A stretch of 64,000 nt of DNA. Source: a virus. The notes beneath the pieces are model-generated. The model made no database searches. It was given only the letters and a program-made list of their open reading frames with translations, and was not told where the DNA came from. The position numbers and the translations under genes are program-made. Where the stretch lies: positions 1-64,000 of IMG/VR virus record IMGVR_UViG_3300037264_006128; one strand, 5' to 3'. Below, one piece after another: positions 16,224-51,953 of the stretch; the stretch's first letter is position 1; each line of letters begins with the position of its first letter.

Positions 16224-16225
16224 AG

Positions 16226-19005: not shown

Positions 19006-19254
19006 ATGACAAGAAAAACATGTGGTGCGGCACTGCTCGCCCTGGCCTTGTTGGTGGCAGGCGGGTGCAGCGACCAGTGCGACGAGGAGTACAGTTACAC
19101 AGACTCATACGGCAGTTCCGTGGAGTGCTGCAAGGAATGCGACTCAAACGGGGAGCAGTGCACTACGGACTGTTCCGGCAGTGGTGGCGGGGGTGGAACG
19201 GAGCCGACGCCAACGCCAACGCCAAAGGAGGTGACAGATGGCGAATCAGCCTGA
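19006..19254 (+). CDS. small Cys-rich lipoprotein
   Basis: signal peptide with lipobox LVAGG-C; TPTPTP tail. Confidence 0.75.
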   Translation: MTRKTCGAALLALALLVAGGCSDQCDEEYSYTDSYGSSVECCKECDSNGEQCTTDCSGSGGGGGTEPTPTPTPKEVTDGESA

Positions 19255-30631: not shown

Positions 30632-31216
30632 CTACGGTTTGGCCGGGGGTTGGCTATCGCCCGCCCCCTGGCTGGCCGCCCGTTCCGCCCGCCGCTTCCG
30701 CACGTTATCGGCCCGCCATCGGCGTTCATGCTTCAGCACGGCAATCGCCTGATCCTTCAACCCAACCTCGTACATATCGTGGCTTCTGGCCATCTGCGCC
30801 AGGATGTATTCTTCGTGCTTCCGATCCTCTGCCACTACCGCCGATTCCAGGCTGATTCGCGGGGGTTCCCCGCCCATGAAATCATCCTGCAGCTTCACGA
30901 ACCGTTCCCGCCGCAAAGCCCACCCCGAACGTTTCTTTTCCCAGCCCCACACTTCGATCAACCACCCACATTCCATCAGCTGGTACAGCGCGGGGCTGTT
31001 CCGTACCTTTTCGATCCGTTCCGCAACGTGATCGCCCGTGGTGGCCTGAATCCCCATCGTGGCGTGCAGGCGCGGGTTGATCGCCACGATATCCAGGATC
31101 CCGTACAGATCGTGCCGCGTGCGGGAAAACGGGTTCCACCGCTCCGCCACAGCCGGCCACCACCCACGCTTGCGCAGGTAATCCATCGAACGGGCAGTGG
31201 GCGAAGGGGCAGCCAT
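30632..31216 (-). CDS. PD-(D/E)XK nuclease, Holliday junction resolvase-like
   Basis: SPT.RS..YLR..GW....E.WN.....R.DL.GI.DI.A...IQ.T. Confidence 0.7.
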   Translation of the reverse strand: MAAPSPTARSMDYLRKRGWWPAVAERWNPFSRTRHDLYGILDIVAINPRLHATMGIQATTGDHVAERIEKVRNSPALYQLMECGWLIEVWGWEKKRSGWALRRERFVKLQDDFMGGEPPRISLESAVVAEDRKHEEYILAQMARSHDMYEVGLKDQAIAVLKHERRWRADNVRKRRAERAASQGAGDSQPPAKP

Positions 31217-31893
31217 CAGCCCATTGTGGGAACTGACGGCCCCGGGGTTGGCGTAGTCAGCACCAGATCAAGCCCTTCCAGGCATCCGCCAACAACTTGC
31301 TGCAGAACCACGTAGTACATCGCCTCCGTGTCCACCCACCCTTGCTTGACGATCAGCGCCTTCGCCGCAGCCAAGGCTGGCCCCAGGTACTTCTCCCAGT
31401 TTTCCAATACCGCCATGATGTCGTCTGTCACGCCGGCACGAATGGCCCCGGGATGATAGCCCACCGCCGCCCGCGGGCCCAGCACTTGTACGATCGTCTT
31501 CAGCACCTGCCGGATCTGCTTCGCTTCTTCCGGGTACTTCACCGCCGTTGCGGTGCAGCTGGCCTTACCATTCGCCCGGATCGCTTCCAGGGATGTGGTT
31601 TGCGTCGGCGTCGAAGGCTCCGAAGTCATAAACCCACAACCCGCCGCGGCAAGAACGGCCAAGACCGCCACCGCCTTTCCGATCTTCGTGGAACCGAACA
31701 CGATCCGGTGAAGCAGTTCCAGCGGCCAGGCGTACCAGGGGACGTACAGTTCGACGAAAGCTTTCGTCGGGTAAGGCCCACTTGCGTTGACTCTCGGATC
31801 GATCACGACGCGCCCGCGCAACCACCACCGGCACAGGATCGGATGCCTGCCTACCGCAACTTTGTTCCGCCCGATACTGCTCTCGCTATCCAT
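31216..31893 (-). CDS. membrane or lipoprotein-like protein (possible spanin component)
   Basis: internal AVAVLAVLAAAG-C lipobox-like segment; TPTP tail. Confidence 0.55.
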   Translation of the reverse strand: MDSESSIGRNKVAVGRHPILCRWWLRGRVVIDPRVNASGPYPTKAFVELYVPWYAWPLELLHRIVFGSTKIGKAVAVLAVLAAAGCGFMTSEPSTPTQTTSLEAIRANGKASCTATAVKYPEEAKQIRQVLKTIVQVLGPRAAVGYHPGAIRAGVTDDIMAVLENWEKYLGPALAAAKALIVKQGWVDTEAMYYVVLQQVVGGCLEGLDLVLTTPTPGPSVPTMG

Positions 31894-32437: not shown

Positions 32438-32610
32438 GTCACCAAAATTACCGCACGGTAGTCACAGTAGAACAGGCGGTCGTTGTTTGCCGCGAGCAGT
32501 GTGACGGTATCCCGATCGAACTCAATCACCCGGACTGCAACTGGCATCCCGCCCAGAACAACCTGAACCACGTTCCCTTCCGCCATGATTGCCGCCAGGA
32601 TCTTTTCCAT
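32434..32610 (-). CDS. small hypothetical protein
   Basis: coupled overlaps at both ends. Confidence 0.55.
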   Translation of the reverse strand: MEKILAAIMAEGNVVQVVLGGMPVAVRVIEFDRDTVTLLAANNDRLFYCDYRAVILVT

Positions 32611-33146
32611 CACCGCCCATCGCCCAGCGCCTTTTCGATCAGCGCCCGGGTTGCCGGATCCGCCGCCCCCAGTGCTTCCACCGCACGCCGCGTTTCCGTT
32701 GCCTTGTCTGCGTCCGTCATTGCACGCACGGTTGCCAGGGCTTCGCTGTAGATGGCACGGATATCGGCGGGGGACAGGTTCCCCGCAGCGGATTGTTCGC
32801 AAGCTGCGTAGAGCGTCGTTCGAAGTACGAGTACAACTTGTGTGCGCCCCGCCAGTTCCACAACGCGCGCCGTCAATTCGGGGGTAAGGCTGCCGGTTGC
32901 ACCTGCGTAGTTGGCGGTCAGTAAAAGCTTGGCCGTTTGTTCGACAGCAACATCCGGGCTTGGCTCAGAGCAGATCGCCCGATGTTCGCCAGCTGGTAGG
33001 ATGAACGCGCCGCGCCGCGTGGCGTCGTAGTTGGCCCAGTAGGCGCTGCGCGCACCCCCCTTGATTTCCTTGATCCCCGCCGGGGCGGTCAGCATGGAAC
33101 AGCCAGCGGGAAGAAGGAGCAGTAGGCCGGCTATCGCCTGGCGCAT
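32610..33146 (-). CDS. lipoprotein
   Basis: MRQAIAGLLLLLPAG-C lipobox. Confidence 0.75.
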   Translation of the reverse strand: MRQAIAGLLLLLPAGCSMLTAPAGIKEIKGGARSAYWANYDATRRGAFILPAGEHRAICSEPSPDVAVEQTAKLLLTANYAGATGSLTPELTARVVELAGRTQVVLVLRTTLYAACEQSAAGNLSPADIRAIYSEALATVRAMTDADKATETRRAVEALGAADPATRALIEKALGDGR

Positions 33147-33364: not shown

Positions 33365-33928
33365 TCAGTTGATCCAGAGCGACGTAGGATCGTATTCCGC
33401 ACGCCGCAACCATCCATCCAGGAAAACCGCCTGGCCCGGGTTACGCTTCACAACTTCCCTGTGGTACTTCGCTTGCAGGTGGGATAATCCGTCGATGACA
33501 AGAGGATACCCCTTGATCTCGTCGGCCCGATTCGCGGTGAACGGTCCCAATATGGAATCGATCTTTAGCGCCGCCCCCTGGCCGTGTTCAGCCTGGTAGG
33601 CCATGTTCAGGGCTTTCTGGAGGAACTGGATAGCCTTGGGCCCCATCAACACCACTTGATCGAACACCTTACAAGCAATCGTAGCAGGCCCCCGCCCGGT
33701 AAGCCGCCATAATCCGTTTTTCTGCCACACGTTGCCGTAATACAACTCCAGCGCATCGGCTAGCGTCAGCTTCGCCGGGTCGGCATCGTCGCCATGCCCG
33801 CATTCCCGCAGGAAGCGTTGCGTGATGCCGTACTTCGTGCGCCCGCCAGCATCGGCGGGGTGATCCGTGAACCCTTCGCCTTCCCACTGCAACGTGCCGG
33901 TGACGGCACGAAGAAAGTCAAGCGTCAT
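33365..33928 (-). CDS. endolysin, glycosyl hydrolase family 108 with PG-binding domain
   Basis: EG.GF.DHP.D.GG.TKYGIT; F..GWLRR. Confidence 0.9.
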   Translation of the reverse strand: MTLDFLRAVTGTLQWEGEGFTDHPADAGGRTKYGITQRFLRECGHGDDADPAKLTLADALELYYGNVWQKNGLWRLTGRGPATIACKVFDQVVLMGPKAIQFLQKALNMAYQAEHGQGAALKIDSILGPFTANRADEIKGYPLVIDGLSHLQAKYHREVVKRNPGQAVFLDGWLRRAEYDPTSLWIN

Positions 33929-34522: not shown

Positions 34523-35110
34523 TCACGGGTAATTGGCCAGGTTCGTCACGCACGCCGTGTATTCGGCCGTCAGCTGCCCCCCGCCCACCCACGTTGATTC
34601 CATCGTCAGGCGGTTGTACTGCACGGCCTGCCCGCGCGGCAATACGCAATGCTGCCCAGCAGCGCAGTTCGGATCCCCCACGCAGCACGTTGCCGGCGAA
34701 CCGCTGCACTTCCCCACGATCGCGTGGGTGCCCGATGAAAACACGACCGTGAACGGGTTGCTGTTTGGGTCAACGCTGGTTTCTGCGAGCACTTCGCATT
34801 CGTTGCTGGCTATCTTTTCCCAGTACCGCAGCTCCGTCCAATCATTCGGGTCCACCATCGCCCCCGTCAACCCCAACGCCGTGCAGTTCGGATCTTGCAC
34901 GCCAACCCCATCGCACAGGGTAAGCTGCAAGGCCCCGGTGCTTTGCTCGTTCACAGAAAGCGTGCAGGTGGGGGCCGTGATTCCTTCGGCAGCAGGCAGT
35001 AAGCCGAAAAGGCGGGCCCCAAAAAACAGCGCTACCATCACAGCCAGCCAGAAGCCGAAGGTGACTAAGGCGGGCAGAATGTTGCCCTCAAAATCCCAAT
35101 TCTTCTTCAT
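34523..35110 (-). CDS. membrane-anchored or exported Cys-rich protein
   Basis: N-terminal TM helix, 11 Cys, repeated DPN. Confidence 0.7.
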   Translation of the reverse strand: MKKNWDFEGNILPALVTFGFWLAVMVALFFGARLFGLLPAAEGITAPTCTLSVNEQSTGALQLTLCDGVGVQDPNCTALGLTGAMVDPNDWTELRYWEKIASNECEVLAETSVDPNSNPFTVVFSSGTHAIVGKCSGSPATCCVGDPNCAAGQHCVLPRGQAVQYNRLTMESTWVGGGQLTAEYTACVTNLANYP

Positions 35111-36876
35111 GGCACTTGGACCTCCTGTGCGTTCATTCCTGGGCTAACCCCATCATCGCCAGCTTGCGCGGGGCAACGTTGGGCAACTTCTGCGGCAGAG
35201 ACAAGCGCAACCGGCGCAGCCCCGGCAGCTTGCGGGGTAACCGCAGCCATGGGGGGGATGGCAAGCGCTGCCATTTCGGCCGGTACCGGCGTGTTCGTGT
35301 GGGTCTTCGTAGGCGTTGCGGTTGGTGTCCATGCGGGGCACCCTTCCACCGACACGTCATCAACGTACCAACCGGACCACCCGAAAGATTCGTCCGACCC
35401 GAGTCGGAGCCGGAACCTGACCGACATGCCTGCGTAACCGCTTACGTCGGCAACGACGTGAACGTAACTAGCGAGGTCGGTCCACGCGAGTAAGCCACTC
35501 AAGGGGTTCCCGGTAATCGCAAGCGTAGTCGAGTAAGGGCCAATCAGCAGATCGTCGTTGGGAACTTGGGCCCACGTCGCCCCGTCGTTCGTCGATACCT
35601 CCAGGATTCCACCGTCCCAATCGTCTTCAAGGTCGGGCATGTGCCAGAATTTGAGGAGTAGTGGGTCTTGCCCAGATGGGAGAACGAGAGAGGGAGACAT
35701 CAAGCGTTGATCAGAAACACCATCTGGATTGTCGGCGTGGTAAGCGGACAACCCGCTGTATGGGTTGCTGGTGAGGATTGCCCAACTGTTATTCGTTCCA
35801 CTTGAGGTCCACCCATCTGCGCCGGACTCGAAATCGTACGCATGCAACACTTGCGTGGACGTGCCATAAGAACAGAAGGTTGGTTCTGGTGTGCTAGTTT
35901 TGGTTGCGGTTGGCGTTGCCGTAACGGTGGATGTTGCCGTTGTGGTCGAGGTTCTCGTAACGGTGAATGTTGCCGTTGGGGTCGAGGTCACTGTCGGCGG
36001 AGGCCCGCGCACAGCGCGCACCAGGGTGAAATACTGCTGAGCTGGCGCGTATTTAGAGACTTTATCCTTAATTGGCCAGTCCAGGAATTGCACGACGTTT
36101 TGCTGATTTTGAGTGTACGGGAAGTAGTAATAGCTGCTTGCTGACGCATACATCAGATGGTTCAGCATCCCGGTACAACTACAAGAGGTATTGACGCACC
36201 CGGCAACGCACCCTGCATTGAACTCAGGATACACACAAGGACCGCTATTGTCAGAGCACCCGGGAGCACCGTAGTTGATCAAAGTATCCAACTCCGAGAC
36301 TGCCGGGACAGAATCTCCCGGTAAACTCACCTGGTTCATCAAGGGGAGCCTCCAATCGGAGTACCCAGCAAAATTTGAGTCGTTTAGCGCCTTCAGCCAC
36401 GACCACACCGTGTCGCCGCTAGGGTCGAACGTCACGCATGCGCCAACCAGGCACATGTCGCACCCACCGTATGGAACCCCGGCGTTCACCCCTCGCGTCA
36501 CCGAATTGCATAGGGCAGCAAGTTCTGCCGTAGATTGGCAAAACCTCGCCGCCGCGCACTTCCCAGCCCATTGGTACCCAGCGAGCTTATCGTGTAGCCC
36601 GCCAGCCATATCCTTCTTCTCCCACATCAGCCCCGTGCAGTTGTCGGTAGTGGTGCCGTCACCGTTGTCCGTGAAGCATGAGGTGGGCGTCGGCGTCTGC
36701 GTGGCCGTCTGGGTCTGTGTGATCGTCGGCGTTTCTGCCTGCCCAAACGCAGGTATTGCCCAGACGGCCAGCGCTAGAAGTGTTGCGACGGCGAGGCTGC
36801 CACGCATGGGAAGGGGAGCCCGCGTGGCGCCTGGGAGGGGGTGCCTCGCCGTCACGCTGTCAGATGCCGCCGCCAT
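35107..36876 (-). CDS. exported DUF1566 (Lcl/C-type-lectin-fold) plus immune-inhibitor-A-like beta-sandwich protein with Thr/Pro linkers
   Basis: signal peptide; FTDNGDGTTTDNCTGLMWEKK, AGYSDWRLP, VRAVRG; DGGILEVSTNDG, GWYVDDV. Confidence 0.85.
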   Translation of the reverse strand: MAAASDSVTARHPLPGATRAPLPMRGSLAVATLLALAVWAIPAFGQAETPTITQTQTATQTPTPTSCFTDNGDGTTTDNCTGLMWEKKDMAGGLHDKLAGYQWAGKCAAARFCQSTAELAALCNSVTRGVNAGVPYGGCDMCLVGACVTFDPSGDTVWSWLKALNDSNFAGYSDWRLPLMNQVSLPGDSVPAVSELDTLINYGAPGCSDNSGPCVYPEFNAGCVAGCVNTSCSCTGMLNHLMYASASSYYYFPYTQNQQNVVQFLDWPIKDKVSKYAPAQQYFTLVRAVRGPPPTVTSTPTATFTVTRTSTTTATSTVTATPTATKTSTPEPTFCSYGTSTQVLHAYDFESGADGWTSSGTNNSWAILTSNPYSGLSAYHADNPDGVSDQRLMSPSLVLPSGQDPLLLKFWHMPDLEDDWDGGILEVSTNDGATWAQVPNDDLLIGPYSTTLAITGNPLSGLLAWTDLASYVHVVADVSGYAGMSVRFRLRLGSDESFGWSGWYVDDVSVEGCPAWTPTATPTKTHTNTPVPAEMAALAIPPMAAVTPQAAGAAPVALVSAAEVAQRCPAQAGDDGVSPGMNAQEVQVP

Positions 36877-37607
36877 CAGAACTCCACGTAAACCGGCTTC
36901 AACAGCCGCGCATTGCGCCGCCTTGGCAGGCAGCAATCGCCGCCAGCCATCAATAGCCGGTCCATGTCGTCGAAATTCATGTACATCCGGCCCTTCACGC
37001 CCCAACTGCGGCCCCAGGAGTTCTGGCCGATGAAGTACCGCTTCGGGGCGTTCACGCCGATCCAGACAACTTCATGCCCGCCGACAACGCTGCCCTTTGG
37101 GTAGATGAACCCAGTCGAACTTACCCGGCACATATGTTCGTGCCACGACAGGCCAGTCAACACCGGGCCGCGGTAGGCGATCGCAAGCGCCATCTCGTGC
37201 GCCGTGCGTGCCCAGTGGTAGGCATTGTAATACCCCAGCTTCACGCACGCCTTTGCGCCGGCAGTGGTGGAGGTACCCGAATCGTTGTTCTGGTCGTTGT
37301 CCGGATCCTCGTCCAGCGTGGTGGCCAGCCCGTACACCATGTCCCGTGCGTAGCCGTACGCCGCACGCGAAGATGGGAACTTCACCGGGGCCGGCGTAGC
37401 GATCAGTTCGCCCGTGAAGCCGCAGCCGACGCAAGTCGAGTCGTTCCCCTGCGAAAGCACCAGCGGCAGTTCCCACCGCCACGACTTGAGCGGTCGATCT
37501 ACATTCATCGCCAACCTCAGCGGGAAGTGCAACGATCGCGGGTCGTGCTCCGCGTTCCAGCCGAATCGGAATTTCGCCATTATTCTCCTCATCTCAGCGT
37601 CGATCAT
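36876..37607 (-). CDS. papain-like cysteine peptidase (C1)
   Basis: QG...TCVG, GGH, QNSWG.SWG..G catalytic motifs. Confidence 0.85.
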   Translation of the reverse strand: MIDAEMRRIMAKFRFGWNAEHDPRSLHFPLRLAMNVDRPLKSWRWELPLVLSQGNDSTCVGCGFTGELIATPAPVKFPSSRAAYGYARDMVYGLATTLDEDPDNDQNNDSGTSTTAGAKACVKLGYYNAYHWARTAHEMALAIAYRGPVLTGLSWHEHMCRVSSTGFIYPKGSVVGGHEVVWIGVNAPKRYFIGQNSWGRSWGVKGRMYMNFDDMDRLLMAGGDCCLPRRRNARLLKPVYVEF

Positions 37608-38065
37608 TTGGCCCCCACCCCCAACAACCACGCCAAGAACAAAACCAACAGTGACCCGACCACAGATGATCCACCACACAATGCGACAATTACTCCGTAA
37701 CGGCCTCGCAAATGCTCAAGTGCCTCTGCACGTTCGGATCGCAGCATTTCTGTATGTTCGGCCCGCTCATCTTCGCGCTCTTTTCGCGTGTCCTTCATCA
37801 CCTGATCAAAGTGCCTAGAACAGTTGGCCTTGATCGAGTCGATGGCCCCGTGCAGATCGCTGCACATACGCTCCACCTCTCGCGTGCGTGCCAGCAGGCC
37901 AGTCATCCCGTTGCCGTCGCCGCGCACCGCAGTCACCATGGCAGTCATGTCCCGCTGCAACACTCCGAGAATCGTGGAAGCATCACGCAACTCTCCCGTG
38001 AGTGATGCCACCAGAGCGTTGCTGCTCGTGACGGCGTGGGCGAGTTCGCGGATCAGTTGCTCCAT
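37604..38065 (-). CDS. coiled-coil protein with C-terminal TM (holin/antiholin-like)
   Basis: C-terminal hydrophobic helix; lies in the lysis region. Confidence 0.6.
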   Translation of the reverse strand: MEQLIRELAHAVTSSNALVASLTGELRDASTILGVLQRDMTAMVTAVRGDGNGMTGLLARTREVERMCSDLHGAIDSIKANCSRHFDQVMKDTRKEREDERAEHTEMLRSERAEALEHLRGRYGVIVALCGGSSVVGSLLVLFLAWLLGVGAK

Positions 38066-38551
38066 CTACTCACCTTTGGTCACGCCCAGTGCGCGTGCCG
38101 TATCGCTTAATGCCTCACGAATCTCCACCAGCTCACGCTCGATGCGGCAGCGGAAGATTGCGTATCGCAGTGTGTGTGCGACCATGAGTGGCGACAGCGC
38201 CGTCTTGGGGATGATTTCATCGGCCCCGTCTTCGATCCACTCGATTGCCGACTTGTCGTGCTCGGACGTTGTAAACACAACAATCGGCACGTCGGGGGCA
38301 AGTCCCTTGAGCCGTTGCACGGACTCCGTGCTGTTCGCGCCAGGAACCGTCGCGTCCAGCAGCACTACATCAGGTGGTTGCCGAATCGCCTCCTCCATCA
38401 TGTCCAGTGTGGCTAGTGTATTCACCACGAAGGGCGCGGTGGTTTCTGAGCCATTGGCAAGCCACTCGCGCACACGTTGGGCAGTCTCGTGCTCTGCCTG
38501 GACGACCAGCACACGAATCGGAGGAGGAAGCAGTCGGCTGCGATGATTCAT
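38066..38551 (-). CDS. stand-alone response-regulator receiver (REC) domain
   Basis: IRVLVV...PDVVLLD..VP...PIVVFT...GADEIIPK. Confidence 0.8.
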   Translation of the reverse strand: MNHRSRLLPPPIRVLVVQAEHETAQRVREWLANGSETTAPFVVNTLATLDMMEEAIRQPPDVVLLDATVPGANSTESVQRLKGLAPDVPIVVFTTSEHDKSAIEWIEDGADEIIPKTALSPLMVAHTLRYAIFRCRIERELVEIREALSDTARALGVTKGE

Positions 38552-38742
38552 AGATCCCTCACGCGACCAACGAACTCTTGCATCTCTTCCGTCACGCCCC
38601 GCAATCGCGCTTGTACATCCTCCAACTGCGCGCATGTGTCGCGCAGGCAAACGGGGGCATCTAGGGGCCGCGCATACGACAACCGCAAGTAGCGATCCGG
38701 CACTGCCGCAACGAGCATCGTGGGCGCGACGACTAAGCACAT
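38548..38742 (-). CDS. small hypothetical protein
   Basis: TAATG and ATGA overlaps with its neighbours. Confidence 0.45.
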   Translation of the reverse strand: MCLVVAPTMLVAAVPDRYLRLSYARPLDAPVCLRDTCAQLEDVQARLRGVTEEMQEFVGRVRDL

Positions 38743-39029
38743 TACTTCTTCTCGTCCACGAGAGCAGTAGCTGTTGCGACCCGCTCCTCTTTGCGCAACT
38801 CCGGCAAGGTCTTGTTCATCTCGCCGGCTGGGATTAGGCCACCGAGGCCCTGCATCGCTGCGGCAACAAACAGCCACGTCTCGCGGTCTATGAGCATGAA
38901 CATGAACGCCGGTAGCGTCCAGGTAATAGCTGCGGCAGACAGCCCAGCTCCACCTGTCAGCAGAACCAGCCGGGCGTACCGCGCGAACGCCGATTCGTCC
39001 CAGAGTAGTCGCTTCAAGAATGCAAGCAT
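38742..39029 (-). CDS. holin-like membrane protein
   Basis: AAGGAGGAG RBS, 2 hydrophobic segments, charged C-terminus. Confidence 0.6.
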   Translation of the reverse strand: MLAFLKRLLWDESAFARYARLVLLTGGAGLSAAAITWTLPAFMFMLIDRETWLFVAAAMQGLGGLIPAGEMNKTLPELRKEERVATATALVDEKK

Positions 39030-39040
39030 CTCGCTCCTCC

Positions 39041-40957
39041 TTATCCTGGCGCCTGGTAGTAGTGCGTCCGTGTCGGCGCCACCGTCCTGGTCCTAGTTGC
39101 CACTTGCCCGCAAAAAAAGCCACCCCGCAGTTCGCCGCCGTCCAGCTCCGCGCACGGCGTCTCAGGAACGGGTGTGGGCGTGATCGTGGGTGTAGGCGTC
39201 CGTGTCGCTCCGCAATATTCACAGTCAAGACTCATCTGATCCACCCCAACGCCAGCACCAGCTGATCGCATCATATTCCACGTGAATCCAGTGTCTACAC
39301 TGTTGACCAGATCGGGCGTCCAGGGGTAGTCAGACACGTACTCGATGATCTCGTCATCCGCAGGGTCGACAGAGTGCTGGACGTCCTGATAGTCGGACAG
39401 ATCGGACCCTACTGGCACGGGGGTTATTCCCGGAGCTACAAAGCGCGCATGATTATCCCAGACCCATTTTGTTCCCGGCGTTGCTGGAATCGCTCGCACT
39501 TCTACCCTGCCGGTGAGTTTGATGCCTGTCGCTTCCGTGGGAATCGGAGTAAGGTCAAATCCCGAGCAACGCATATAGCACCCATTGCCGCCATTAGGGT
39601 TGACAACGATGACTCCAGGCGTAGCCTCTCCATGCGGCGCGTACACGTTATCACTCTCCTGCGCATATTCCGGGTGTCCCAAACAATAGCCCCCTGTGGT
39701 GTTTCGGCAGTACGTCGGCTTCGCCCGCTGTGTATACAAACCGCCTGCGGGGCACGTCGGCGTGGGTGTCGCCGCTGGTGTAATTGTCGGAAGACCACGT
39801 AACCCCCAGGCGTAGTATCCCGCCGTTGGGGCATTGCATGGCCCCTCCGCAACAAAACCATTTGGATCAGTACTGAGGGTCAGGCCACGCTGAATTAGAT
39901 CGGTATTACCTTGCAGGTACGGATTCGTGGCTAGGTCTGATTGATTATGACGCAAGCCACGACACAAGTAAGCGGTTTTTGCGTCGGACGTTATCATCGC
40001 CATGCGGGCCATTCCACCGACATTAATAGCCTGCGGTTCCCTTCCGACACCAGACCAGGTGCTGGTCCATAACCAGTTGCTAACCTCAGCGTTCTTTTTT
40101 GCGGCAAAGAAGTAGTATGTTTTCCCCCCCAACACCAGATCGCCAGAGGCAACGAACCCCGTGTCTGAGAATGTCAGTAACCCAGTGCCGCACGACGTTA
40201 CACCTGTAGCCTGAAGGTAAGCGCACGACGTCGTAGTTGGCATGTCTGAGGTTTTGATTTGGTTGTATTCGGTAAAGCTCGAAGTCGTAATCGTCATCAG
40301 TACATCTGGACGCCAACCGAAATCGACCGCTTGAGTAACGCCACTGCCAATCCAGGCACCATCTGTCGCTAATGCCCAGCTTTTGCCAAAGGCGTAGTAA
40401 CAAAACCGAGTATTGTTCTGATTCACATTTTGGTTTGTCCCGAGAGTGAACCCATTATCCGTAAGGTCTAAGATTTGGGTTGTATAGCAGGTGGTTCCCC
40501 CCTGCCATCCACACGATAAATCCGATGGCATTGTGTCGGTCGCTAGAACGCCAGAGAAGTCATCGTATGCGCTTCTCACAAACACTATAGATGAGCGAAA
40601 CCCAACGGTGATCTCGCGAGCAACGCCCGTTCCTGTGTAACAGTCAAACGCAACGTCCACGAATGCGGGGGGCGTTGGGCTCGATCCAGGGGTGATTGTG
40701 GGGGTGCGAGTCCAGGTAGGGGTGTGTGTTTGTGTCGGTGTTCTTGTCAGTGTTTCCGTCGGTGTTGGGGTTCGAGTCGGAGTAATCGTCCTCGTGTTGG
40801 TCGCGGTATTCGTGGGGACAGTCGCGGTTTCGGTGGCTGTCGGAACCGTGGCCGTCTCGGTTGGCGTCTCAGTAGGGACTGTTTCTGTCGGCGACTGCGC
40901 CCACAGCGGCGCGGCGACCAGCAGGCACAGCGCGATCGCAGCAAAGGACTGCTTCAT
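39041..40957 (-). CDS. exported Thr/Pro-rich protein with tail-fibre-type repeats
   Basis: signal peptide MKQSFAAIALCLLVAAPLWA; T/P linker; three (Y/W)xGxG..(I/V)..G repeats. Confidence 0.85.
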   Translation of the reverse strand: MKQSFAAIALCLLVAAPLWAQSPTETVPTETPTETATVPTATETATVPTNTATNTRTITPTRTPTPTETLTRTPTQTHTPTWTRTPTITPGSSPTPPAFVDVAFDCYTGTGVAREITVGFRSSIVFVRSAYDDFSGVLATDTMPSDLSCGWQGGTTCYTTQILDLTDNGFTLGTNQNVNQNNTRFCYYAFGKSWALATDGAWIGSGVTQAVDFGWRPDVLMTITTSSFTEYNQIKTSDMPTTTSCAYLQATGVTSCGTGLLTFSDTGFVASGDLVLGGKTYYFFAAKKNAEVSNWLWTSTWSGVGREPQAINVGGMARMAMITSDAKTAYLCRGLRHNQSDLATNPYLQGNTDLIQRGLTLSTDPNGFVAEGPCNAPTAGYYAWGLRGLPTITPAATPTPTCPAGGLYTQRAKPTYCRNTTGGYCLGHPEYAQESDNVYAPHGEATPGVIVVNPNGGNGCYMRCSGFDLTPIPTEATGIKLTGRVEVRAIPATPGTKWVWDNHARFVAPGITPVPVGSDLSDYQDVQHSVDPADDEIIEYVSDYPWTPDLVNSVDTGFTWNMMRSAGAGVGVDQMSLDCEYCGATRTPTPTITPTPVPETPCAELDGGELRGGFFCGQVATRTRTVAPTRTHYYQAPG

Positions 40958-40973
40958 GGAAGAATCACGCCCA

Positions 40974-41087
40974 TCAATCGTCTCGCTTACTGAAGAAGTG
41001 CTCACACGCGATCAACACCAGGACCACGGTAAAGAGCCCATAGAGGAAGCCGCAGAAGATCGTGTCAAGCACACCTATGTCGTTCAT
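40974..41087 (-). CDS. 37-aa single-TM microprotein (not in the ORF track)
   Basis: [37 protein letters not shown] fills the intergenic gap. Confidence 0.45.
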
Positions 41088-41094
41088 TTCATTA

Positions 41095-42075
41095 TCAGAG
41101 GAAGATCCACGGGGTGTCGCCCCCTGGGACTTCAGTTGCGGTTGCTGTCTCGGTCATCGTGACAGTAACCGTGTGCGTTGCGGTTTGTGTCGGCGTCTCA
41201 GTTGGAACGGTTGCCGTCGCTGTCTCGGTTGGTGTCTCAGTAGGGACCGTCGCCGTCGGCGTGTTCGTCGGGGTTGCCGTCGGCGTCTCCGTCGGCGTGT
41301 TGGTCGGTGTTTGCGTCGGCGTCGCCGTCGGGGTTTCCGTCGGCGTGTTGGTCGGTGTTTGCGTCGGCGTGTTGGTCGGTGTTTGCGTCGGCGTCGCCGT
41401 CGGCGTGTTGGTCGGCGTGCTCGTGGGGACAGTGCTTGTCCGGGTTTGGGTAGGAGTTCGCGTAACCGTTGGGGTTGGGTTGTTGTAATAGATACGCACT
41501 TCAATATGGTTTACACGAGCGGTATTCGTTGTTACTCCTGTCTTTAAAACACCAATAGCGACACCCCACGTAGCAGAATTGACAAATGCGCTATCCCATG
41601 TGCTTCCCCAAAGGTCAGTAGAACCACCGTAGGTGACATACGCCTCACTTGCAGCTACGGGCCAAGCAGTACCGGACGCTTTATCGGTCCCAGTTAGGAA
41701 CCCAACCCACACCGTTTTGACAACCTTGTCCACAAAATTTGTTGATGTGCCCGACGAACTCTTCTTAAACCGTGCCTCCATACCTACCACTTGGCTTCCG
41801 ACTGGGATCGAAAAACCCCAGTTGTATCCAGCGAGGCAGTCCGAGAAGTTCCCATTAGTTGGCGCGGCAGTAGCACGATTCGTGTCGTCAGCTACTATGT
41901 AACTGTCGTTTGACCAGGGGTAGGGGGAATTACAAAGTGCGTCGCCAGTAGCCGTTCCATGGGTCGTTGACCCTGGGCTAGTCCATGCCGTTACTTCAAC
42001 CGCAAGCGTTTGCCGTGATGCAAACGCTGTGATCGCAGCAACACAAAGCAAAATGGCCAGAACTTGGCGCATCAC
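41095..42075 (-). CDS. exported beta-sandwich protein with a long (TPT)n mucin-like tail
   Basis: signal peptide; WGFSIP.GS.V.G...[11 protein letters not shown] domain; about 120 aa Thr/Pro repeat. Confidence 0.85.
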
Positions 42076-42677
42076 ATTGCTGCAACCACGAGGTTTTTCA
42101 GCCGTGTGTGGCCGATAAGAGTTAGATGATACTCGTCACGGAAATACCTAATCCCGTAGGGCAGACCGGCCTGTGTTTCGACGACGATCTTCCCGGTGCA
42201 GACCTGCCGGATCGCAGCGCGATAGTTATCGAGTGTCAGACCGAGGGTGTTTGTCTCACCATCGTGCGCGTTCGGCGGTGGGATAACGCACACGACCTGC
42301 GCGTAGGGCCATGAATCGCACATTACCGAGTAAGCAGCGGTGAAATCGGCAAGCGTCGTAGATAGTATCCAATCGTTTGTACCGAGCAGGACGAACAACC
42401 GAGTTGCCCAGAGATCCTGCAAAGGTGGGACGTACGAGACGACTGCGCCGCCCATGTTCCAGAAAAACGGCTCAGTTGGGTTCCCCGCCGTCTGCCCCTC
42501 GCGCGCAAAGACGTGAGGCAAGAAATTCAGCGAATTGGACACCTGCCCCCACCATAAGTTATCCGTGTTCCCAAACGTGGTGTCTCGCGTGAGGCTATCC
42601 CCTACGAAAGCGACCGGCTCAAGTGTAGCCGCACACGGCGCGCAGAGGAGCGCGAGCAACAGCAACATTTTTTTCAT
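42072..42677 (-). CDS. exported SGNH/GDSL hydrolase
   Basis: signal peptide; GDSLT, LGTND, DEYH. Confidence 0.85.
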
Positions 42678-42680
42678 TTC

Positions 42681-43643
42681 TCATTCCCCCAACTGATCGG
42701 TTGGGTACAGCACCGACACCGACAGCAGTTTGATGTCTGCAACAGTCGTGTTAGTGGTGTCCACCACGGTGTAACAACTCAGAGAGTCACCAGAGTTACA
42801 TGGCCCGTCGATAAACACACCCAGCGCTTGCGTATGCACACGATCATTCGCCACGCCGTGAACAATGTCTGCATCCTTCTTTATACCCCAGGTATTGTTT
42901 TCTGGATCGTCACCAGTGCGGCAGTGACAGTAGAGATCAAGGGCTAGGGTGCCAGAACCAGCAGCTTGCCAGCTTGTAAACAGGAGGTTAATGGTTGTCT
43001 CACCTGACGACCACTCCTCTGGCATCCGCTCCACGCCGAAGTCAAAACGACCATCGGCATGATCAGCGCAGGTGACGGTACTCTTGAACGGGCCACTGTT
43101 GAGCTGTTCGGTTGCTTTGACACACTGGGCACCATCCACTACCCAGGCACCAGTATGGATCAGAATAGGCTTGATCGGCCAGCTCGCGGTGAAGGTATTG
43201 CTCTCAGTGGTCAGGATGCCGGACGAAGCCCCGGTGATCCCAACAACGTCATTCGGATCAACGCAATGCGAGCACGCGAGGTTCGCAACATCAACTTCGT
43301 CAGCACCGCCGTTGGAATGACGAGCAGCGTGGGTGTTGATCGTGGCGAGGTGCGCCAGGTCGCCGGTTGGCGATTGGCAGGCGTAGTCCGTGTTCGGATC
43401 CCCGCACCGGTTGTCCACATCGCCGCACCACATTTCACCACCAACGACTGCGGGCGGCACCCCGGCCGTTACGCCGCAGTTCGGGTAGAGCGTCATCCCG
43501 GCAGGCTTGCTCGGGTTCATGTTCCGCGCCGCCTGGGTATCGCAGGTTTGGACGCCCGCCACTTCAACGCAGGCCGCGCCCCAGGCAGAGACCGGCAAGG
43601 AAACTGCAAGAATAAGAAGGGTTGCTAGTCTGAGATTCTTCAT
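42681..43643 (-). CDS. exported Cys-rich protein with a tail-fibre-type motif
   Basis: signal peptide MKNLRLATLLILAVSLPVSAWG; HAARHSNGGADEV. Confidence 0.8.
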   Translation of the reverse strand: MKNLRLATLLILAVSLPVSAWGAACVEVAGVQTCDTQAARNMNPSKPAGMTLYPNCGVTAGVPPAVVGGEMWCGDVDNRCGDPNTDYACQSPTGDLAHLATINTHAARHSNGGADEVDVANLACSHCVDPNDVVGITGASSGILTTESNTFTASWPIKPILIHTGAWVVDGAQCVKATEQLNSGPFKSTVTCADHADGRFDFGVERMPEEWSSGETTINLLFTSWQAAGSGTLALDLYCHCRTGDDPENNTWGIKKDADIVHGVANDRVHTQALGVFIDGPCNSGDSLSCYTVVDTTNTTVADIKLLSVSVLYPTDQLGE

Positions 43644-44020
43644 GCAGGGGCCTCGTGCTCGTGATCGTGCAGTATGATGCGGAAGCGAAATGCAACGTCG
43701 AATCCGTCAACATCCCCGCCCTCGTCAAATACAACACGGAAGCGGTCGCCGTCGTAGACACCAACCGGGCCTAGGTCGGTTTGCGCCTCGGTTGTGGTTG
43801 TCGCGATTGCGTTCCCACCGGGCAGGTGCCCGAACGTAGGCATGTCCCTAGTTTTGCGCTGCACGGCAAACACGCCGGAACCAGAAACGGTGGCATGCTC
43901 CACGCCGATCAGCCACGCCTTCTGCCCTGGGCCGACCGCAATGAACAGGGCGTGGGTGGTTACACCGCCAAGCGGGCCTACGATCGCCAGACATTCCGCC
44001 CTGTAGATCTCGTGTGCCAT
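43640..44020 (-). CDS. hypothetical protein (possible tail-fibre accessory)
   Basis: coupled to the tail fibre gene. Confidence 0.65.
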   Translation of the reverse strand: MAHEIYRAECLAIVGPLGGVTTHALFIAVGPGQKAWLIGVEHATVSGSGVFAVQRKTRDMPTFGHLPGGNAIATTTTEAQTDLGPVGVYDGDRFRVVFDEGGDVDGFDVAFRFRIILHDHEHEAPA

Positions 44021-47000
44021 CAGCTATCCACTGCAAGCGTAACCGTGTACCCGTCGCCGAAGGTAACCTTCAGGTCCCCATCGGCCGTGTCTACAAAGAT
44101 GGTCGCTGTGCCTGCGATGGCAGCCGGTGCGGTTACGCCGTCCGTGATGCCCAAGACGCCCGCAGCCCCGCCAAGCCGCAACGCGAGGTTTGGGTGGGCA
44201 TTGATGTCAACGCCAAGGTGGTTGTCGATCCGAACCTGGTCCCCGTCTATGGTAACCACTTCGCTTCCGGCGGGATCGCCCAGATACGTACCGCCGTTGG
44301 CAATCTTGAACTTGTCCCCATCGCTGTTATCGACCCCGAGAACCCAATCGTAAGTTCCGGTGATGCAGAAGTGGATGTACGTGTCCGCATCGCTGTCGTT
44401 CTCGATCTTCATCCATGCGTGTTCGTTGGCCGTGTTCCGGTAGATGTGCAGCATGGACTCTGGCGTCGGCAGCACTGTTTCTGGGGTTAACAGCAGGGTG
44501 CCCGCCAAGAGGCTATCTTCCGTGCCCGTCTGTTTGATGCCCCATCGGTTTGTTGCCGTGCCCGTTACCGTGAATGCCGGAAGGAGGAGGCCAACAGCGT
44601 CCGTTGCTTCCCCCGCCACGGAAACCGCAGCTTCAACCCCAGCAAGAACAGCAACCACGCCACCTGTAGCCCCGGCGTACGCCCTGCCGTACACGCCAAC
44701 AACCTTTGCGGCGGTACCGCTGCCGTAGTGTAGGGCATATCCGTAGAGCCCGGAAAGATTCGGATAATTGCCTGCGGTAAGATCCATCGCGCACGCAACG
44801 GCGGACGCTGCCCGGCCTTGCACTCCCGTGAAACCAGCCACAGAAGCTGAAGCGGGGTCCGCTTCGACGCTAGCATAGGCCGCCGGTTCGAGAGTAGCCC
44901 CAATCGCGGTGTAAGATGCTGGCTCGACACTCAGAAAGCCGGGCCTCGTAGGGTACGACGTTGCATCGTGGACAACGACGGAACCCGTACCGCTTAAGAC
45001 CTCGAATCCCTTCGACGGCTTTACCGAACTGCCGAAAATCGTACGCCCCGCGAACACGTTGCACTGGTCCGTGCTCGGCTGGTAAATCCCGTAGTTGTTC
45101 GTTGCCGATGCGCCAAGGTCGTCTGCGATGTACACCCGGTAGGCGTTGGTCATCGTAGCGTTGTTAGTGATGCCGACGTACAGGCCGTAGGCGTCTGTGA
45201 TCGTACCGCTGCCGTCGTGGGTAACCTGGGCGTAGAGCGCGCGTAGGCGGTTAAGATCGCCGCTTCCCGTGGGCCAAATGTGGAAATAGCCTCCGTCCGA
45301 GTTGTAGCTGTCGCCAGATCCGGTAACTGTCAACGTGCCGCTGAACAGACGGAACGTTTCCCCCGCAGCAGCACCGGTGAGCGTTGCGGTGAGGTTTGAG
45401 ATGAAGGCGAAGGCGCTTGTGTGCTCGGATGGGGTAACATCGACACGTACCATGCCGTCGCTTTGGATGGCGCGATAAGCCTGGTCCCCCGCCACCACAT
45501 AGAGTGGAACGGTGGTAGAGGCTGCCGGCGTGGCAACTTTGAGTAGATAGTTCGAATCGCCAGTGCCTGCCGCCTCTTCGGTGACCACGAACCCTAACTG
45601 GTTGTCGTTGCCACTGAAGTTCCACCGCCACGTTTGGGTGTATGCCTCGCAGTCTATTGTGCTGGCTGCGGCGGCGTCCCCAAGCCCAGAAATGTACCCA
45701 AGCGGGCCTACTACCACACCAGCGTCGTCTTCTGTGTACAGCCCGTCTGACTTGAAGAACAACCGCCAGTGATCGGCATCGGGATCGCCAGCCGGGTTCC
45801 CCGCCAGTTCCCGCCACAGGATGGTGCGGTCATCTGGGATCGAGAAAACGTGGGTTGAGCCGTCTAGGATCTCCAGGTACCGGCCAACCCCATCGCTAGT
45901 AAGCCGCAACAACGGTTTGTCGTCTGTAACGTTGTCTGCGAAAATCTCCACGATCGCTTCTGCAGGTGCAGATGTGGAATCCCTGTAGAAATACCCAGCC
46001 CGCCCGGTTGTCGAACTGCCGTAAATCCCAGTACCAGATGCGCTGCTTCCGGTCGTGCCGACACCAATCGTTCCGGTTCCCTTCACGCCGCTCTTGCCGG
46101 CGGTGCTTGCGCTACCTACGATAGCGTCCTTGCCATCGCCGACGACGTTGAATTCCCCGCTGCCAGAGAATGCGTTGATGCAGACGCTTGCGGCATCGCC
46201 GTCAACAAAGAACAGCGGAGTTGCGCCCGTTCCGTACACGGCGAAGTCGTAGGCGGACTGTGTCGCGTTGACAACGAACGCGGTGTTCCCAACTGAGACG
46301 ATCTCGTCACTCCCGATATACGCATACAGTAAACCGGCGTCTGGGCTTGCTACCTTCAGAAGCAACGCCGCCTGCGTTGCGGTGGCATCCTGGTCTTCAA
46401 TCTGCACCACAGGTTCGGTTGGGGAACTTTGCGCCCGCAGAAAATACCCAGCCTGCACTGCGCCCCCGCTGGCCATGATGGTTGCGCCTAGATTGCCCGG
46501 CGTTGTGGCCGTTGCCCCATCCATCGCCGCCACGATCGCACCGTAGGCCGTACCGCCCTGCCCCAGGGCGTAGATTGCCGGCCGCGCGGTGCCCACAGAG
46601 GAAGCGTGAAATACCCCAAGTGCCGTGCCGGAAGCGTTCACGAACACCGCATTCGTGCCTGCGTCGATGTTGAAGGCGTACTCTAGGCCGGTTGTTTCGA
46701 CACGCAAGTTCCAATCAGCCCCAGCGTCGTTGAACACGGTGTCCGTTGTCGCCGGTTGCCGCAGGGCGTACTGCGTGTGGTCGTCGTCGGCAAGGCCGGC
46801 CAGATCCCCGTGGTGCACAACGCCGCCAGTCAGCACGGGGCCGACTTCCACGCCGGCATCGCTGACGTAGTACAATCCACCTGCCTTGAAGTACAACTTC
46901 CATTGGCCTGTACTTGGAACAACCGGCTTCGCGCCAATTTCGGTGACAAGTAAGCTGTGGGCGCCAAGCTGCAGGTCCCCGGCCATCACTCTGGTGCCGT

Positions 47001-47808
47001 CCGCGAGTACGTACTGCGAATGGTCGTCGTCGGCAAGGCCGGTCAGCCCCCCGTGGTCCGTTACGCCACCCCCGCCTGCACCAAGCGGCCCTATTTCCGC
47101 CCCGGTAGCGTCTTGGTAGTACAAACCGTCCGACTTGGCGTAGGCGAAGATCGATCCTGCGGCGGGATAAACTGCGGGGGTAGCGCGATTGTAAAGCTGA
47201 AGCGTACGGTTTGCGACACGCAGGTCTTCCTGAAGTGATCCAGCCCGCATCGAGGAGATCGCCAGGTAGGCATCCAGACCTGTGGCAATGTTCGCATCCT
47301 CCCATGCCCACACGAACTTCGCCGCAAGGTTGCTCGTTCCGCCGTCATCTTCCAAATACACAGGCAGGGCGCCACCGAACCCATCTTGGGCTGCGCCGGT
47401 CGTGTTCAGCTTCAGCGTCAGTAGGTCGTAGACTGCCGCAGTGCCGGCCACCTCCCGTTCGACAACCACGCCGTTCGAAACGGTCGTTGGGATGTTGATG
47501 GTAGTTGAACCGTCCGCGAGAACGTACTCGCTTCCCTGTTTTCCGTCGAGCAAGTCCGCATCTAGGCCAGTGTCGTGCCCATCCTGAAACGAGAGCGCCC
47601 ACAGCACATCCTCTGGGTCTAGGTTGGCCCCCGGGATGTAACTGCCGTCAAGCATTGGAATGCCATCGGTCGCGTTGCGGGCTGCGATGATGATGTTGAC
47701 GGCATCCACCAAATCAAGAAGGTCCTCCCTCGCATCGTCCGGGTCCTTGCTTGAATCGATCAGGTTGCTGCGGTTGATTGGGGCGGTTGGCCACGACATG
47801 ATGGGCAC
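44020..47808 (-). CDS. tail fibre protein
   Basis: follows the tail tip; DADLLDG; repeated HGxLxGLADDDHxQY and LYFKxxGLY modules. Confidence 0.85.
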   Translation of the reverse strand: MPIMSWPTAPINRSNLIDSSKDPDDAREDLLDLVDAVNIIIAARNATDGIPMLDGSYIPGANLDPEDVLWALSFQDGHDTGLDADLLDGKQGSEYVLADGSTTINIPTTVSNGVVVEREVAGTAAVYDLLTLKLNTTGAAQDGFGGALPVYLEDDGGTSNLAAKFVWAWEDANIATGLDAYLAISSMRAGSLQEDLRVANRTLQLYNRATPAVYPAAGSIFAYAKSDGLYYQDATGAEIGPLGAGGGGVTDHGGLTGLADDDHSQYVLADGTRVMAGDLQLGAHSLLVTEIGAKPVVPSTGQWKLYFKAGGLYYVSDAGVEVGPVLTGGVVHHGDLAGLADDDHTQYALRQPATTDTVFNDAGADWNLRVETTGLEYAFNIDAGTNAVFVNASGTALGVFHASSVGTARPAIYALGQGGTAYGAIVAAMDGATATTPGNLGATIMASGGAVQAGYFLRAQSSPTEPVVQIEDQDATATQAALLLKVASPDAGLLYAYIGSDEIVSVGNTAFVVNATQSAYDFAVYGTGATPLFFVDGDAASVCINAFSGSGEFNVVGDGKDAIVGSASTAGKSGVKGTGTIGVGTTGSSASGTGIYGSSTTGRAGYFYRDSTSAPAEAIVEIFADNVTDDKPLLRLTSDGVGRYLEILDGSTHVFSIPDDRTILWRELAGNPAGDPDADHWRLFFKSDGLYTEDDAGVVVGPLGYISGLGDAAAASTIDCEAYTQTWRWNFSGNDNQLGFVVTEEAAGTGDSNYLLKVATPAASTTVPLYVVAGDQAYRAIQSDGMVRVDVTPSEHTSAFAFISNLTATLTGAAAGETFRLFSGTLTVTGSGDSYNSDGGYFHIWPTGSGDLNRLRALYAQVTHDGSGTITDAYGLYVGITNNATMTNAYRVYIADDLGASATNNYGIYQPSTDQCNVFAGRTIFGSSVKPSKGFEVLSGTGSVVVHDATSYPTRPGFLSVEPASYTAIGATLEPAAYASVEADPASASVAGFTGVQGRAASAVACAMDLTAGNYPNLSGLYGYALHYGSGTAAKVVGVYGRAYAGATGGVVAVLAGVEAAVSVAGEATDAVGLLLPAFTVTGTATNRWGIKQTGTEDSLLAGTLLLTPETVLPTPESMLHIYRNTANEHAWMKIENDSDADTYIHFCITGTYDWVLGVDNSDGDKFKIANGGTYLGDPAGSEVVTIDGDQVRIDNHLGVDINAHPNLALRLGGAAGVLGITDGVTAPAAIAGTATIFVDTADGDLKVTFGDGYTVTLAVDS

Positions 47809-51951: not shown

Positions 51952-51953
51952 GA

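Follow-up and report, generated by a model that had tools for sequence, protein, structure and literature searches.

The siphovirus contig IMGVR_UViG_3300037264_006128 (linear, 96,451 bp, about 60% GC, CheckV completeness estimate of 78%) was analyzed primarily through its first 64 kb, hereafter the window. Between a distal tail fiber gene and the endolysin gene, its late operon carries a block of six minus-strand genes (P1 to P6) whose products begin with export-type N-termini and are mostly rich in cysteine. We interpret this block as a late-operon accessory module of Sec-exported, disulfide-stabilized proteins that bind or modify glycans, draw on the domain pool of tail fiber tips, and would act on host surface polysaccharide. 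We assign this reading a probability of roughly 0.45, with export, disulfide formation, glycan target, and benefit to the phage all being parts that we infer. The broader proposition that the block proteins are exported from the cytoplasm and for the most part bind or modify carbohydrate is probably correct, judging from their sequences. The original prediction for this region had been a module of exported receptor-binding-like proteins: signal-peptide N-termini, domains shared with virions, and synteny across about 20 contigs uphold the module itself, and the prediction is partly supported, with receptor occlusion, surface remodeling, and virion decoration as candidate roles.

Export-type N-termini and composition of the block

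The six open reading frames (ORFs) are all present on the minus strand between fiber and endolysin, as first described, and the export-type starts proposed for them were recovered as classical Sec signal peptides in P1–P5 and a signal anchor in P6. Signal peptides were called with our own heuristic for n-, h-, and c-regions together with reading by eye. A Sec (signal peptidase I) N-terminus was defined by a positive n-region, an uncharged hydrophobic h-region of 10–15 residues, and small residues at positions −3/−1. P1–P5 conform to this definition, and the P6 anchor is longer and of the uncleaved type (22 residues after MKKNWDFEGN). P1 begins with MKNLRLATLLILAVSLPVSAWGA. For P4 the signal peptide reads from internal Met17 (ATG 40957) as MKQSFAAIALCLLVAAPLWAQS, and for P5 from Met67 (ATG 36807) as MRGSLAVATLLALAVWAIPAFGQA, a start which also abolishes a 130-nt overlap with the upstream peptidase gene. 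On this reading of the sequence, the two internal starts are more plausible than the upstream ones. Across the approximately 115 ORFs of the 96-kb genome, the heuristic flagged only P1–P5, three lipoproteins (19006+, 31219−, 32613−), and one antisense ORF. Since almost nothing else was flagged genome-wide, the clustering of signal peptides is not a matter of chance. No lipobox (L-[AS]-[GA]-C) was found in P1–P6, and the three lipoproteins of the genome fall outside the block.

The proposed Cys-richness of most block proteins is seen in five of the six, at 2.5–5.1% (P1 4.4%, P2 2.5%, P4 2.8%, P5 3.0%, P6 5.1%), with P3 at 0.9%. The tape measure, Dit, 746-aa tail protein, and 1262-aa fiber contain 0.1–0.7% Cys, the content of the block being 4–40 times that of these virion proteins. 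Thr/Pro linkers were likewise found in three proteins, namely P3 (the C-terminal ~125 aa, encoded by imperfect 24/36/48-nt tandem repeats at 41248–41419), P4 (~90 aa right after the signal peptide, along with shorter tracts), and P5 (three linkers). The idea that such linkers mark exported proteins did not hold up, as 39 low-GC viral contigs have them in large proteins without signal peptides. A viral scan with the whole of P3 returned only Thr/Pro low-complexity matches, all in proteins without signal peptides from unrelated low-GC phages, and linkers alone are therefore not indicative of export. In low-GC uncultured phages (L002–L040, IMG/VR, GC 31–48%), TPTPT-type linkers are a frequent feature of very large proteins without signal peptides, the longest of 4292 aa.

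P1 joins a fiber motif to a CBM35-like head

P1 (320 aa; 42681..43643, minus strand) comprises a signal peptide, a Cys-rich N-terminal part, one HxxRHxxGGxDE fiber-shaft motif (residues ~104–117), and a CBM35/CBM6-like beta-sandwich head (residues ~158–320). It had no match in Pfam (even at E 10), PHROGs, GenBank phages (tblastn), or a word-indexed protein search, and an exhaustive HMMER search retrieved 214 relatives in two classes. Class A (125 of the top 149 HMMER matches) shares the C-terminal domain, with four near-invariant Cys, and defines a head family of at least 125 clusters. In 93 class A members this domain ends at most 15 residues from the C-terminus. Class B shares only the HAARHSNGGADEV region, which occurs there as 5–14 repeats in large proteins. 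Among full-length class A members, 80 of 94 had a signal peptide under the strict heuristic and at least five more had hydrophobic N-termini (i.e. ~85–90% signal-peptide-bearing), with a median Cys content of 2.3%. The corresponding values for class B were 2 of 17 and 0.18%. Given this sharp contrast, P1 is, as far as sequence comparison can tell, a chimera of a fiber-shaft motif and an “exported-type” head.

The recognition of HAARHSNGGADEV as a fiber motif was borne out, as it is found twice in the HFTV1 tail fiber gp42 (PDB 9h7v) and repeatedly in the large class B relatives without signal peptides. The alignment of HxxRHxxGGxDE to gp42 is weak (E 0.13), and the motif is also present in multi-repeat fiber-like proteins. 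The gp42 fiber of HFTV1, a Haloferax virus, is a metal-coordinating homotrimer with Mg/Zn at the trimer interface (PMC12494034).

An AlphaFold2 model of P1 from a 68-row alignment had a predicted local distance difference test (pLDDT) score above 90 for residues 160–320 and below 50 for the N-terminal part. The head aligned with CBM35, CBM6, and CBM36 structures at Z 11–12.4 (VIA-align; 12.4 for CBM35), with a root-mean-square deviation of 2.4–2.8 Å over 121–127 residues, and also superposed on tail chains of HFTV1 and phage Pa223 (Z ~10). Foldseek pointed to Eph ligand-binding domain (Eph-LBD)/CBM folds, and the best matches in BFVD were uncultured Caudovirales proteins and collagen/C1q-type fiber heads. 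This likeness is one of fold only: by sequence the head is not a CBM family, with no Pfam match at E 10 and 4–12% identity to CBMs. The head-domain profile found no real match among PDB sequences, including the tips of the mosaic adhesive trimer (MAT) fibers of Bdellovibrio. None of eight head-family proteins matched a PHROG, P0008 had no GenBank phage match (tblastn), P0019 was not found in IMG/VR, and a pattern scan with alignment A2 returned no close IMG/VR relatives. With no PHROG or Pfam model and no GenBank phage match, the head family is invisible to current annotation.

Residues 5–119 of P1, covering the signal peptide, mature N-terminal part, and motif, are 47% identical to P0005, a signal-peptide-bearing protein of 712 aa whose distal part differs from P1 and is rich in fiber repeats. 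P0009 (1163 aa) has the same N-terminus and head as P1, with 850 Cys-rich residues between them. As judged from these alignments, the layout of the three proteins is that of a fiber-like constant N-terminal end and an exchangeable tip, set behind a signal peptide. A scan of genome contigs with P0005 found only the generic fiber motif in candidate phyla radiation (CPR), Acidobacteria, and other metagenome-assembled genomes.

Recurrence of the module in other phages

The head-domain alignment, used in pattern scans, identified 13 IMG/VR loci and 41 metagenome loci, the two sets partly overlapping. All 11 true IMG/VR head ORFs (237–2071 aa, on contigs of 38–67% GC) have a classical signal peptide, and a head gene with signal peptide was also present in about 10 further metagenome loci, for a total of about 20 phage contigs. 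The head gene adjoins one to three further same-strand ORFs with signal peptides in almost all loci of readable length. Identified neighbors include Laminin_G_3 lectins of ~250 aa (1.8e-24), right-handed beta-helix/chondroitinase-B-like proteins of ~620–910 aa (one with a Malectin domain), and a DUF7483 protein. Directly behind their signal peptides, the beta-helix proteins start with motifs such as “ATDYYV” or “ATRYWV”.

Wherever genomic context was readable, the head family occurred only in phage contexts. In loci outside the IMG/VR scan, 38 neighbors matched PHROGs for portal (three members), major head, head closure, large terminase, tail, tape measure, and integrase proteins. Signal-peptide proteins follow an internal virion protein and a T7-gp17-type fiber without signal peptide in L063, and follow portal, major head protein, and virion structural protein genes in L049, where a conventional fiber gene was not recognized near them. 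On this 44-kb, podovirus-like contig (67% GC), two Cys-rich products are encoded after the head-family gene, one of 345 aa with 21 Cys and a signal-peptide protein of 1264 aa with 94 Cys (7.4%; 12384–17098). In L060 and L061, a C1 peptidase and a GH108-like lysin are encoded downstream of the module. Small lipoprotein or transmembrane (TM) ORFs, spanin- or holin-like, directly follow the module in L079 (8018–8489) and L055 (12532–13861), which places it typically at the junction between tail and lysis genes. Overall, what was found is not a set of ordinary host surface proteins without conserved synteny, but domains shared with virions in a recurrent phage gene neighborhood.

Enzyme-like and adhesin-like proteins of the block

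In P2 (201 aa; 42072..42677, minus strand), the signal peptide leads directly into an SGNH/GDSL esterase, with no anchor domain. The esterase, already proposed in the original prediction, is recognized by Pfam PF13472 (Lipase_GDSL_2; 34.7 bits against a cut-off of 32.9, 3.2e-8), with GDS, GxND, and DxxH all present in the catalytic blocks FVGDSLT, LLGTNDW, and DEYH. Its closest PHROG is phrog_5240, “tail fiber protein”, matched in the C-terminal part of the profile (positions 459–614 of 670, 3.7e-6). Only about 10 residues separate the catalytic Ser of the GDS block from the predicted cleavage site, which leaves no room for a virion-anchor domain. A phmmer search of P2 against all PDB sequences gave nothing at E ≤ 0.1.

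P3 (326 aa; 41095..42075, minus strand) consists of a signal peptide, a GFSIP...YGGSTDLWG domain of ~175 aa, and the Thr/Pro tract. The expectation that this domain belongs to virion-type proteins was confirmed: a podovirus “tail tubular protein A” (MW202473) has it at its N-terminus, ORF39 of Methanobacterium virus PhiF1, a neighbor of baseplate J, contains it internally, and it recurs in two IMG/VR proteins (L065 and L066). The MW202473 protein, PhiF1 ORF39, and the L066 protein lack a signal peptide, so that homologous domains do exist in virion tail proteins that are not of the exported type. The domain is also C-terminal in P0002, a metagenomic protein of 463 aa with a type IV pilin N-methylation motif. 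Being spread over virion tail proteins and a pilin-like protein, it looks like a mobile extracellular adhesin module of virions and pili, as far as these matches go, and P0002 suggests that pili may use it as an adhesin, in addition to its use in phage tails. P3 had no Pfam match even at E 10, and AlphaFold2 gave no usable fold for the domain (4-row alignment, pLDDT 43). Homology of this domain to the C-terminal domain of P4 was considered and rejected (BLASTP not significant, E 12).

P4 (638 aa from Met17; 39041..40957, minus strand, in an ORF extending to 41005) carries a Thr/Pro stalk of ~90 aa behind its signal peptide; three DUF7483-like repeats (YTGTGVAREITVGF type) come next, and the C-terminal region is rich in Cys. 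It matches P0154 (E 8.7e-15), a 998-aa protein with a signal-peptide-like N-terminus and six DUF7483/DUF7361 repeats (PF24299 + PF24060), and its first repeat matches a signal-peptide-bearing DUF7483 protein of L059 (1e-5). The YTGTGV-type repeats are tied to Pfam DUF7483 through these two proteins, P4 itself having no direct Pfam match at E 10. The P4 core had no GenBank phage match (tblastn), an Atlas search returned nothing, and megablast of the whole block found nothing in GenBank phages. The gene call in the source data (P0153, 461 aa) leaves out the signal peptide, Thr/Pro stalk, and first repeat.

P5 (566 aa from Met67; 35107..36807, minus strand, in an ORF extending to 37005) is built from a signal peptide, a DUF1566/Lcl_C-like Cys-rich domain, a Thr/Pro linker, a MAM/jelly-roll-like domain, a second Thr/Pro linker, and a tail. 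The DUF1566 domain initially assigned to it was recovered as a partial match below threshold (PF07603, 31.0 bits against a cut-off of 34.9, 3.4e-7, profile positions 1–52 of 117), and P5 is likely a distant DUF1566/Lcl_C relative on the basis of this profile match. An InhA-like MAM match (PF20773, 1.3e-5) was just below cut-off, and a sequence search of P5 against PDB yielded nothing. P6 (195 aa; 34523..35110, minus strand) combines its signal anchor with a Cys-rich ectodomain of ~150 aa, and its gene starts within the last 4 nt of P5. No P6 relatives were found in Pfam (E 10), PHROGs, or GenBank phages (tblastn).

Genomic setting of the block

The late genes form a single minus-strand operon. 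It opens with large terminase, portal, scaffold, and major head protein genes (in L050), followed by tail completion, terminator, tube, chaperones, tape measure (55279–59904), Dit, and the 746-aa tail protein. Next come a J-like central fiber (47827–52200; phrog_31, 4e-77) and the distal tail fiber of 1262 aa (44020..47808, minus strand), which has no signal peptide, contains 0.4% Cys, and forms the upstream boundary of the block. Downstream of this fiber are the six-protein block, the GH108/PG_binding_3 endolysin (33365..33928, minus strand; Pfam PF05838, 1.5e-15; phrog_315, 2.3e-27), which is the downstream boundary, and two lipoproteins. The cultured phages with the most similar TerL and J proteins (at most 41% identity) infect Proteobacteria. 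Together with the GH108 lysin and the lipoproteins after it, this suggests a diderm host with a periplasm.

Four-nucleotide overlaps occur at g126/P1, P2/P3, and P5/P6, with a 3-nt gap between P1 and P2. Promoter- and terminator-like sites were not above shuffled expectation, and there is accordingly no moron-type transcription signature. This absence of excess sites and the tight coupling place expression of the block with the late genes. GC content at third codon positions (GC3) is 0.48–0.58 in P3 and P4 (0.48 in P3) vs about 0.70 in phage core genes. This lower GC3 suggests, as a compositional signal, that P3 and P4 may have been acquired later than the rest of the phage. Neither a tyrosine integrase nor a Wzy_C/PglL-type transferase was found in the 96 kb of this 78% complete genome; the latter result bears on the mucin-like O-glycosylation of Thr/Pro linkers originally suggested, which is conjectural on these data.

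The 126-aa ORF g126 (43640..44020, minus strand), whose start abuts the fiber stop region, had no family match in Pfam or PHROG. Genes not of the exported type are also interleaved in the block, and the lysis cassette is split by the exported-protein genes. A 95-aa holin-like protein with two hydrophobic segments and an AAGGAGG ribosome-binding site (38742..39029, minus strand) is followed by a stand-alone response-regulator receiver domain without output domain (38066..38740, minus strand; Pfam PF00072, 5.8e-11). The receiver-domain gene thus lies within the lysis region, between the holin-like ORF and a 153-aa tail-anchored protein with a C-terminal hydrophobic, transmembrane-like segment (37604..38065, minus strand). 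A papain-type (C1) peptidase without signal peptide and with probable start Met24 (36876..37679, minus strand; phrog_16701, 1.6e-41; Pfam PF00112) comes next. It could process the exported proteins or take part in lysis. C1 peptidase homologs lie near the lysin gene in L060 and L061 (L061 15924–16634, 34% identity), and L011 and L012, both TPTPT-linker contigs, also carry a C1 peptidase. Three lipobox proteins are encoded at 32610–33146 (minus strand), 31216–31893 (minus strand, internal start), and 19006–19254 (plus strand). The two just after the endolysin are possible spanin-like proteins, with the reservation that a spanin of 178 aa would be large, and the third is a small Cys-rich lipoprotein of the early region.

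Possible roles of the exported proteins

In the reading we favor, the block genes would be transcribed together with tail and lysis genes, the signal peptides would carry P1–P5 over the inner membrane while P6 stays anchored there, and the cysteines would form disulfides in the oxidizing periplasm. Lectin-type parts, i.e. the CBM35-like head of P1, the DUF1566/MAM-like domains of P5, the DUF7483-like repeats of P4, and the adhesin domain of P3, may then bind host surface or nascent polysaccharide. The SGNH esterase P2 would remove acyl groups, a task that beta-helix lyase-type enzymes with signal peptides would take on in related phages. The likeliest benefit would be that the phage masks or destroys its own glycan receptor on the infected cell and on debris, or loosens capsule or exopolysaccharide (EPS), such that progeny and superinfecting phages would not be lost on the receptor. 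Action on host polysaccharide is favored by the anchorless enzymes, by the coexistence of ordinary signal-peptide-free fibers with the module (the J-like protein and 1262-aa fiber here, the T7-gp17-type fiber in L063), and by the coupling to late and lysis genes. All six proteins start with a signal peptide or anchor, which sets them apart from virion fibers. Since the catalytic fold begins right after the signal peptide, the enzymes also lack the N-terminal particle-binding domain that tailspikes need, which makes virion decoration a poor explanation for the enzyme members. Several points nonetheless weigh against this interpretation. Export is predicted from N-terminal sequence features, and in a diderm host the Sec pathway reaches only the periplasm, so that access to surface polysaccharide takes a further step or lysis. 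P1 and many of its relatives are fiber-like (trimer-type shaft motif, conserved N-terminal part and variable distal part, lengths up to 2071 aa), a build which is more than a soluble lectin needs. No other obvious fiber gene was identified beside the signal-peptide proteins in L049 and L055. P3, P4, and P6 are without an assigned fold.

These fiber-like traits are what one would expect if the proteins were true virion parts, fibers or decorations that fold and form disulfides in the periplasm and join cytoplasm-built particles only once lysis by holin and endolysin has united the two compartments. P1 bears the metal-binding, trimer-type motif of a solved tail fiber (HFTV1 gp42; PMC12494034), and its Atlas and BFVD neighbors are viral fiber-type proteins. 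With P0005 it shares the signal peptide and first ~95 mature residues followed by a different distal part, a “constant anchor, variable tip” design. Head-family members of 2009–2071 aa occupy the fiber slot, and the signal-peptide proteins of L049, where no other fiber was recognized, are flanked by a virion structural protein on one side and internal-virion-like genes on the other. However, we know of no route for periplasmic fiber assembly in tailed phages and found none in literature searches, canonical signal-peptide-free fibers are present both here and in L063, the N-terminal part of P1 is unstructured in the AlphaFold2 model, and an anchor domain could not be accommodated in P2, the LamG proteins, or the beta-helix enzymes. 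On balance we consider virion parts unlikely, if still deserving of serious attention. Slightly more doubtful is the generalization that many uncultured diderm tailed phages use a second assembly compartment, in which Sec-exported, periplasm-oxidized fibers and enzymes (P1, perhaps P3–P5) would attach at lysis. The anchorless enzymes, the mixture of enzymes and lectins in the module (SGNH here; beta-helix, chondroitinase-B-like, malectin, and LamG in relatives), and the position of the genes beside or within lysis genes would also suit soluble “public goods” freed at lysis. By diffusion they would reach neighboring cells before the virions and remove or tag capsule, EPS, or biofilm matrix there, aiding the next infection or the escape of progeny. 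Soluble phage depolymerases outside the virion are known, e.g. PghP of Bacillus phage PhiNIT1, as are halo-forming free depolymerases. Long fiber-like members and the membrane-anchored P6 are unfit for a purely diffusible role, and we regard this scenario as rather unlikely, although on present data it is not separable from the one we favor.

A bacterial origin, with the block serving as lysogenic-conversion or auxiliary genes whose secreted adhesins and carbohydrate-active proteins benefit the host, would fit the lower GC3 of P3 and P4 and the presence of their domains in bacterial-looking proteins (P0002 with its pilin motif, and P0154, whose C-terminal region is peptidoglycan-binding-like by eye only). 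Signal peptides have been reported on 5% of prophage carbohydrate-active enzymes (CAZymes) in a global survey (PMC13507307), and NanS-p esterases of Shiga toxin (Stx) phages have been read as conversion factors. We nevertheless judge this origin improbable, as no tyrosine integrase was found in the available part of the genome, the genes are translationally coupled to fiber and lysis genes with no promoter or terminator signal of their own, and the module is conserved beside tail genes in very different phages, with the head family confined to phage contexts wherever these could be read. For P2, possibly together with the CBM35-like head of P1, a narrower function as a lysis accessory can be envisioned, in which a periplasmic O-acetyl-peptidoglycan esterase would de-acetylate N-acetylmuramic acid (MurNAc) for the GH108 muramidase. 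A signal-peptide-bearing SGNH esterase in a lysis-gene neighborhood is compatible with such a function; in Neisseria, the periplasmic SGNH esterase Ape1 has a CBM35-type domain, and muramidases are blocked by O-acetylation. The empty PDB search for P2 lends it no help, however, and the partner enzymes in related phages are of beta-helix polysaccharide-lyase types, which points to capsule or EPS rather than peptidoglycan, leaving this the most remote of the explanations considered.

Significance and relation to known systems

Host-recognition proteins of tailed phages are generally taken to be cytoplasmic. If the proteins described here are secreted, phages would routinely export receptor-binding or receptor-destroying proteins, a bacterial-virus counterpart of viral receptor-destroying enzymes; if they are virion parts, part of the virion would be assembled outside the cytoplasm. 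Either outcome would alter the prediction of receptor-binding proteins in metagenomic phages and the inference of host range, as well as the way such proteins are expressed, since they may need oxidizing conditions. Full-text literature searches found no paper on signal-peptide-bearing fiber or lectin modules in tailed phages, and the prophage CAZyme survey draws no link from signal peptides to tail modules (PMC13507307).

Individual folds in the module have described counterparts. Tailspike and fiber enzymes (P22 gp9 type; SGNH fibers such as PHROG 5240) use the same SGNH, right-handed beta-helix, and CBM/LamG folds. In the module proteins the fold starts right after a signal peptide, while these virion enzymes lack a signal peptide and carry a particle-binding domain at the N-terminus. 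Similarly, the P1 head is alike in fold to the CBM35, CBM6, and CBM36 domains of secreted glycoside hydrolases, but it has four conserved Cys and is always C-terminal in fiber-like proteins. NanS-p/phi24B gp84 of Stx phages, a sialate O-acetylesterase detected in the virion and read as a phage–glycan link (PMC10462455; bioRxiv 10.64898/2026.04.10.717836), resembles P2 in being a phage-encoded carbohydrate esterase. It differs in being a capsid decoration with an N-terminal DUF1737 capsid-binding domain, which P2 lacks; P2 instead starts with a signal peptide, a term absent from the text on gp84.

Parallels in gene position are provided by Cor of phi80/N15, the lambda Lom/Bor morons, and O-antigen-modifying genes beside tailspike genes. 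T5 Llp is a phage-encoded exported superinfection-exclusion protein beside a receptor-binding gene (PMC9586334). Llp, Cor, and Bor resemble the block proteins in that their genes lie beside tail fiber or receptor-binding protein genes and their products carry signal sequences for the envelope; they are believed to prevent adsorption to infected cells or debris. They are, however, small lipoproteins that block a protein receptor, whereas the block proteins have no lipobox, measure 195–640 aa, are multi-domain, lectin- or enzyme-type and fiber-derived, and lie six in a row. By architecture, the closest described system is the MAT fibers of Bdellovibrio bacteriovorus, which combine a signal peptide, a conserved beta-rich N-domain of ~130 aa, and a trimeric phage-like fiber with variable tips, S74 or other (PMC10769870). 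P1, P0005, and P0009 share this order of signal peptide, conserved N-domain, fiber, and exchangeable adhesin or lectin tip, a likeness of architecture only. The MAT genes are chromosomal genes of a predatory bacterium that displays the fibers on its own surface, while those described here belong to the late operons of tailed phages. Taken together, these comparisons place the block in a kind that is already known, that of phage-encoded exported accessory proteins beside receptor-binding genes, with a real chance that it represents something more unusual.

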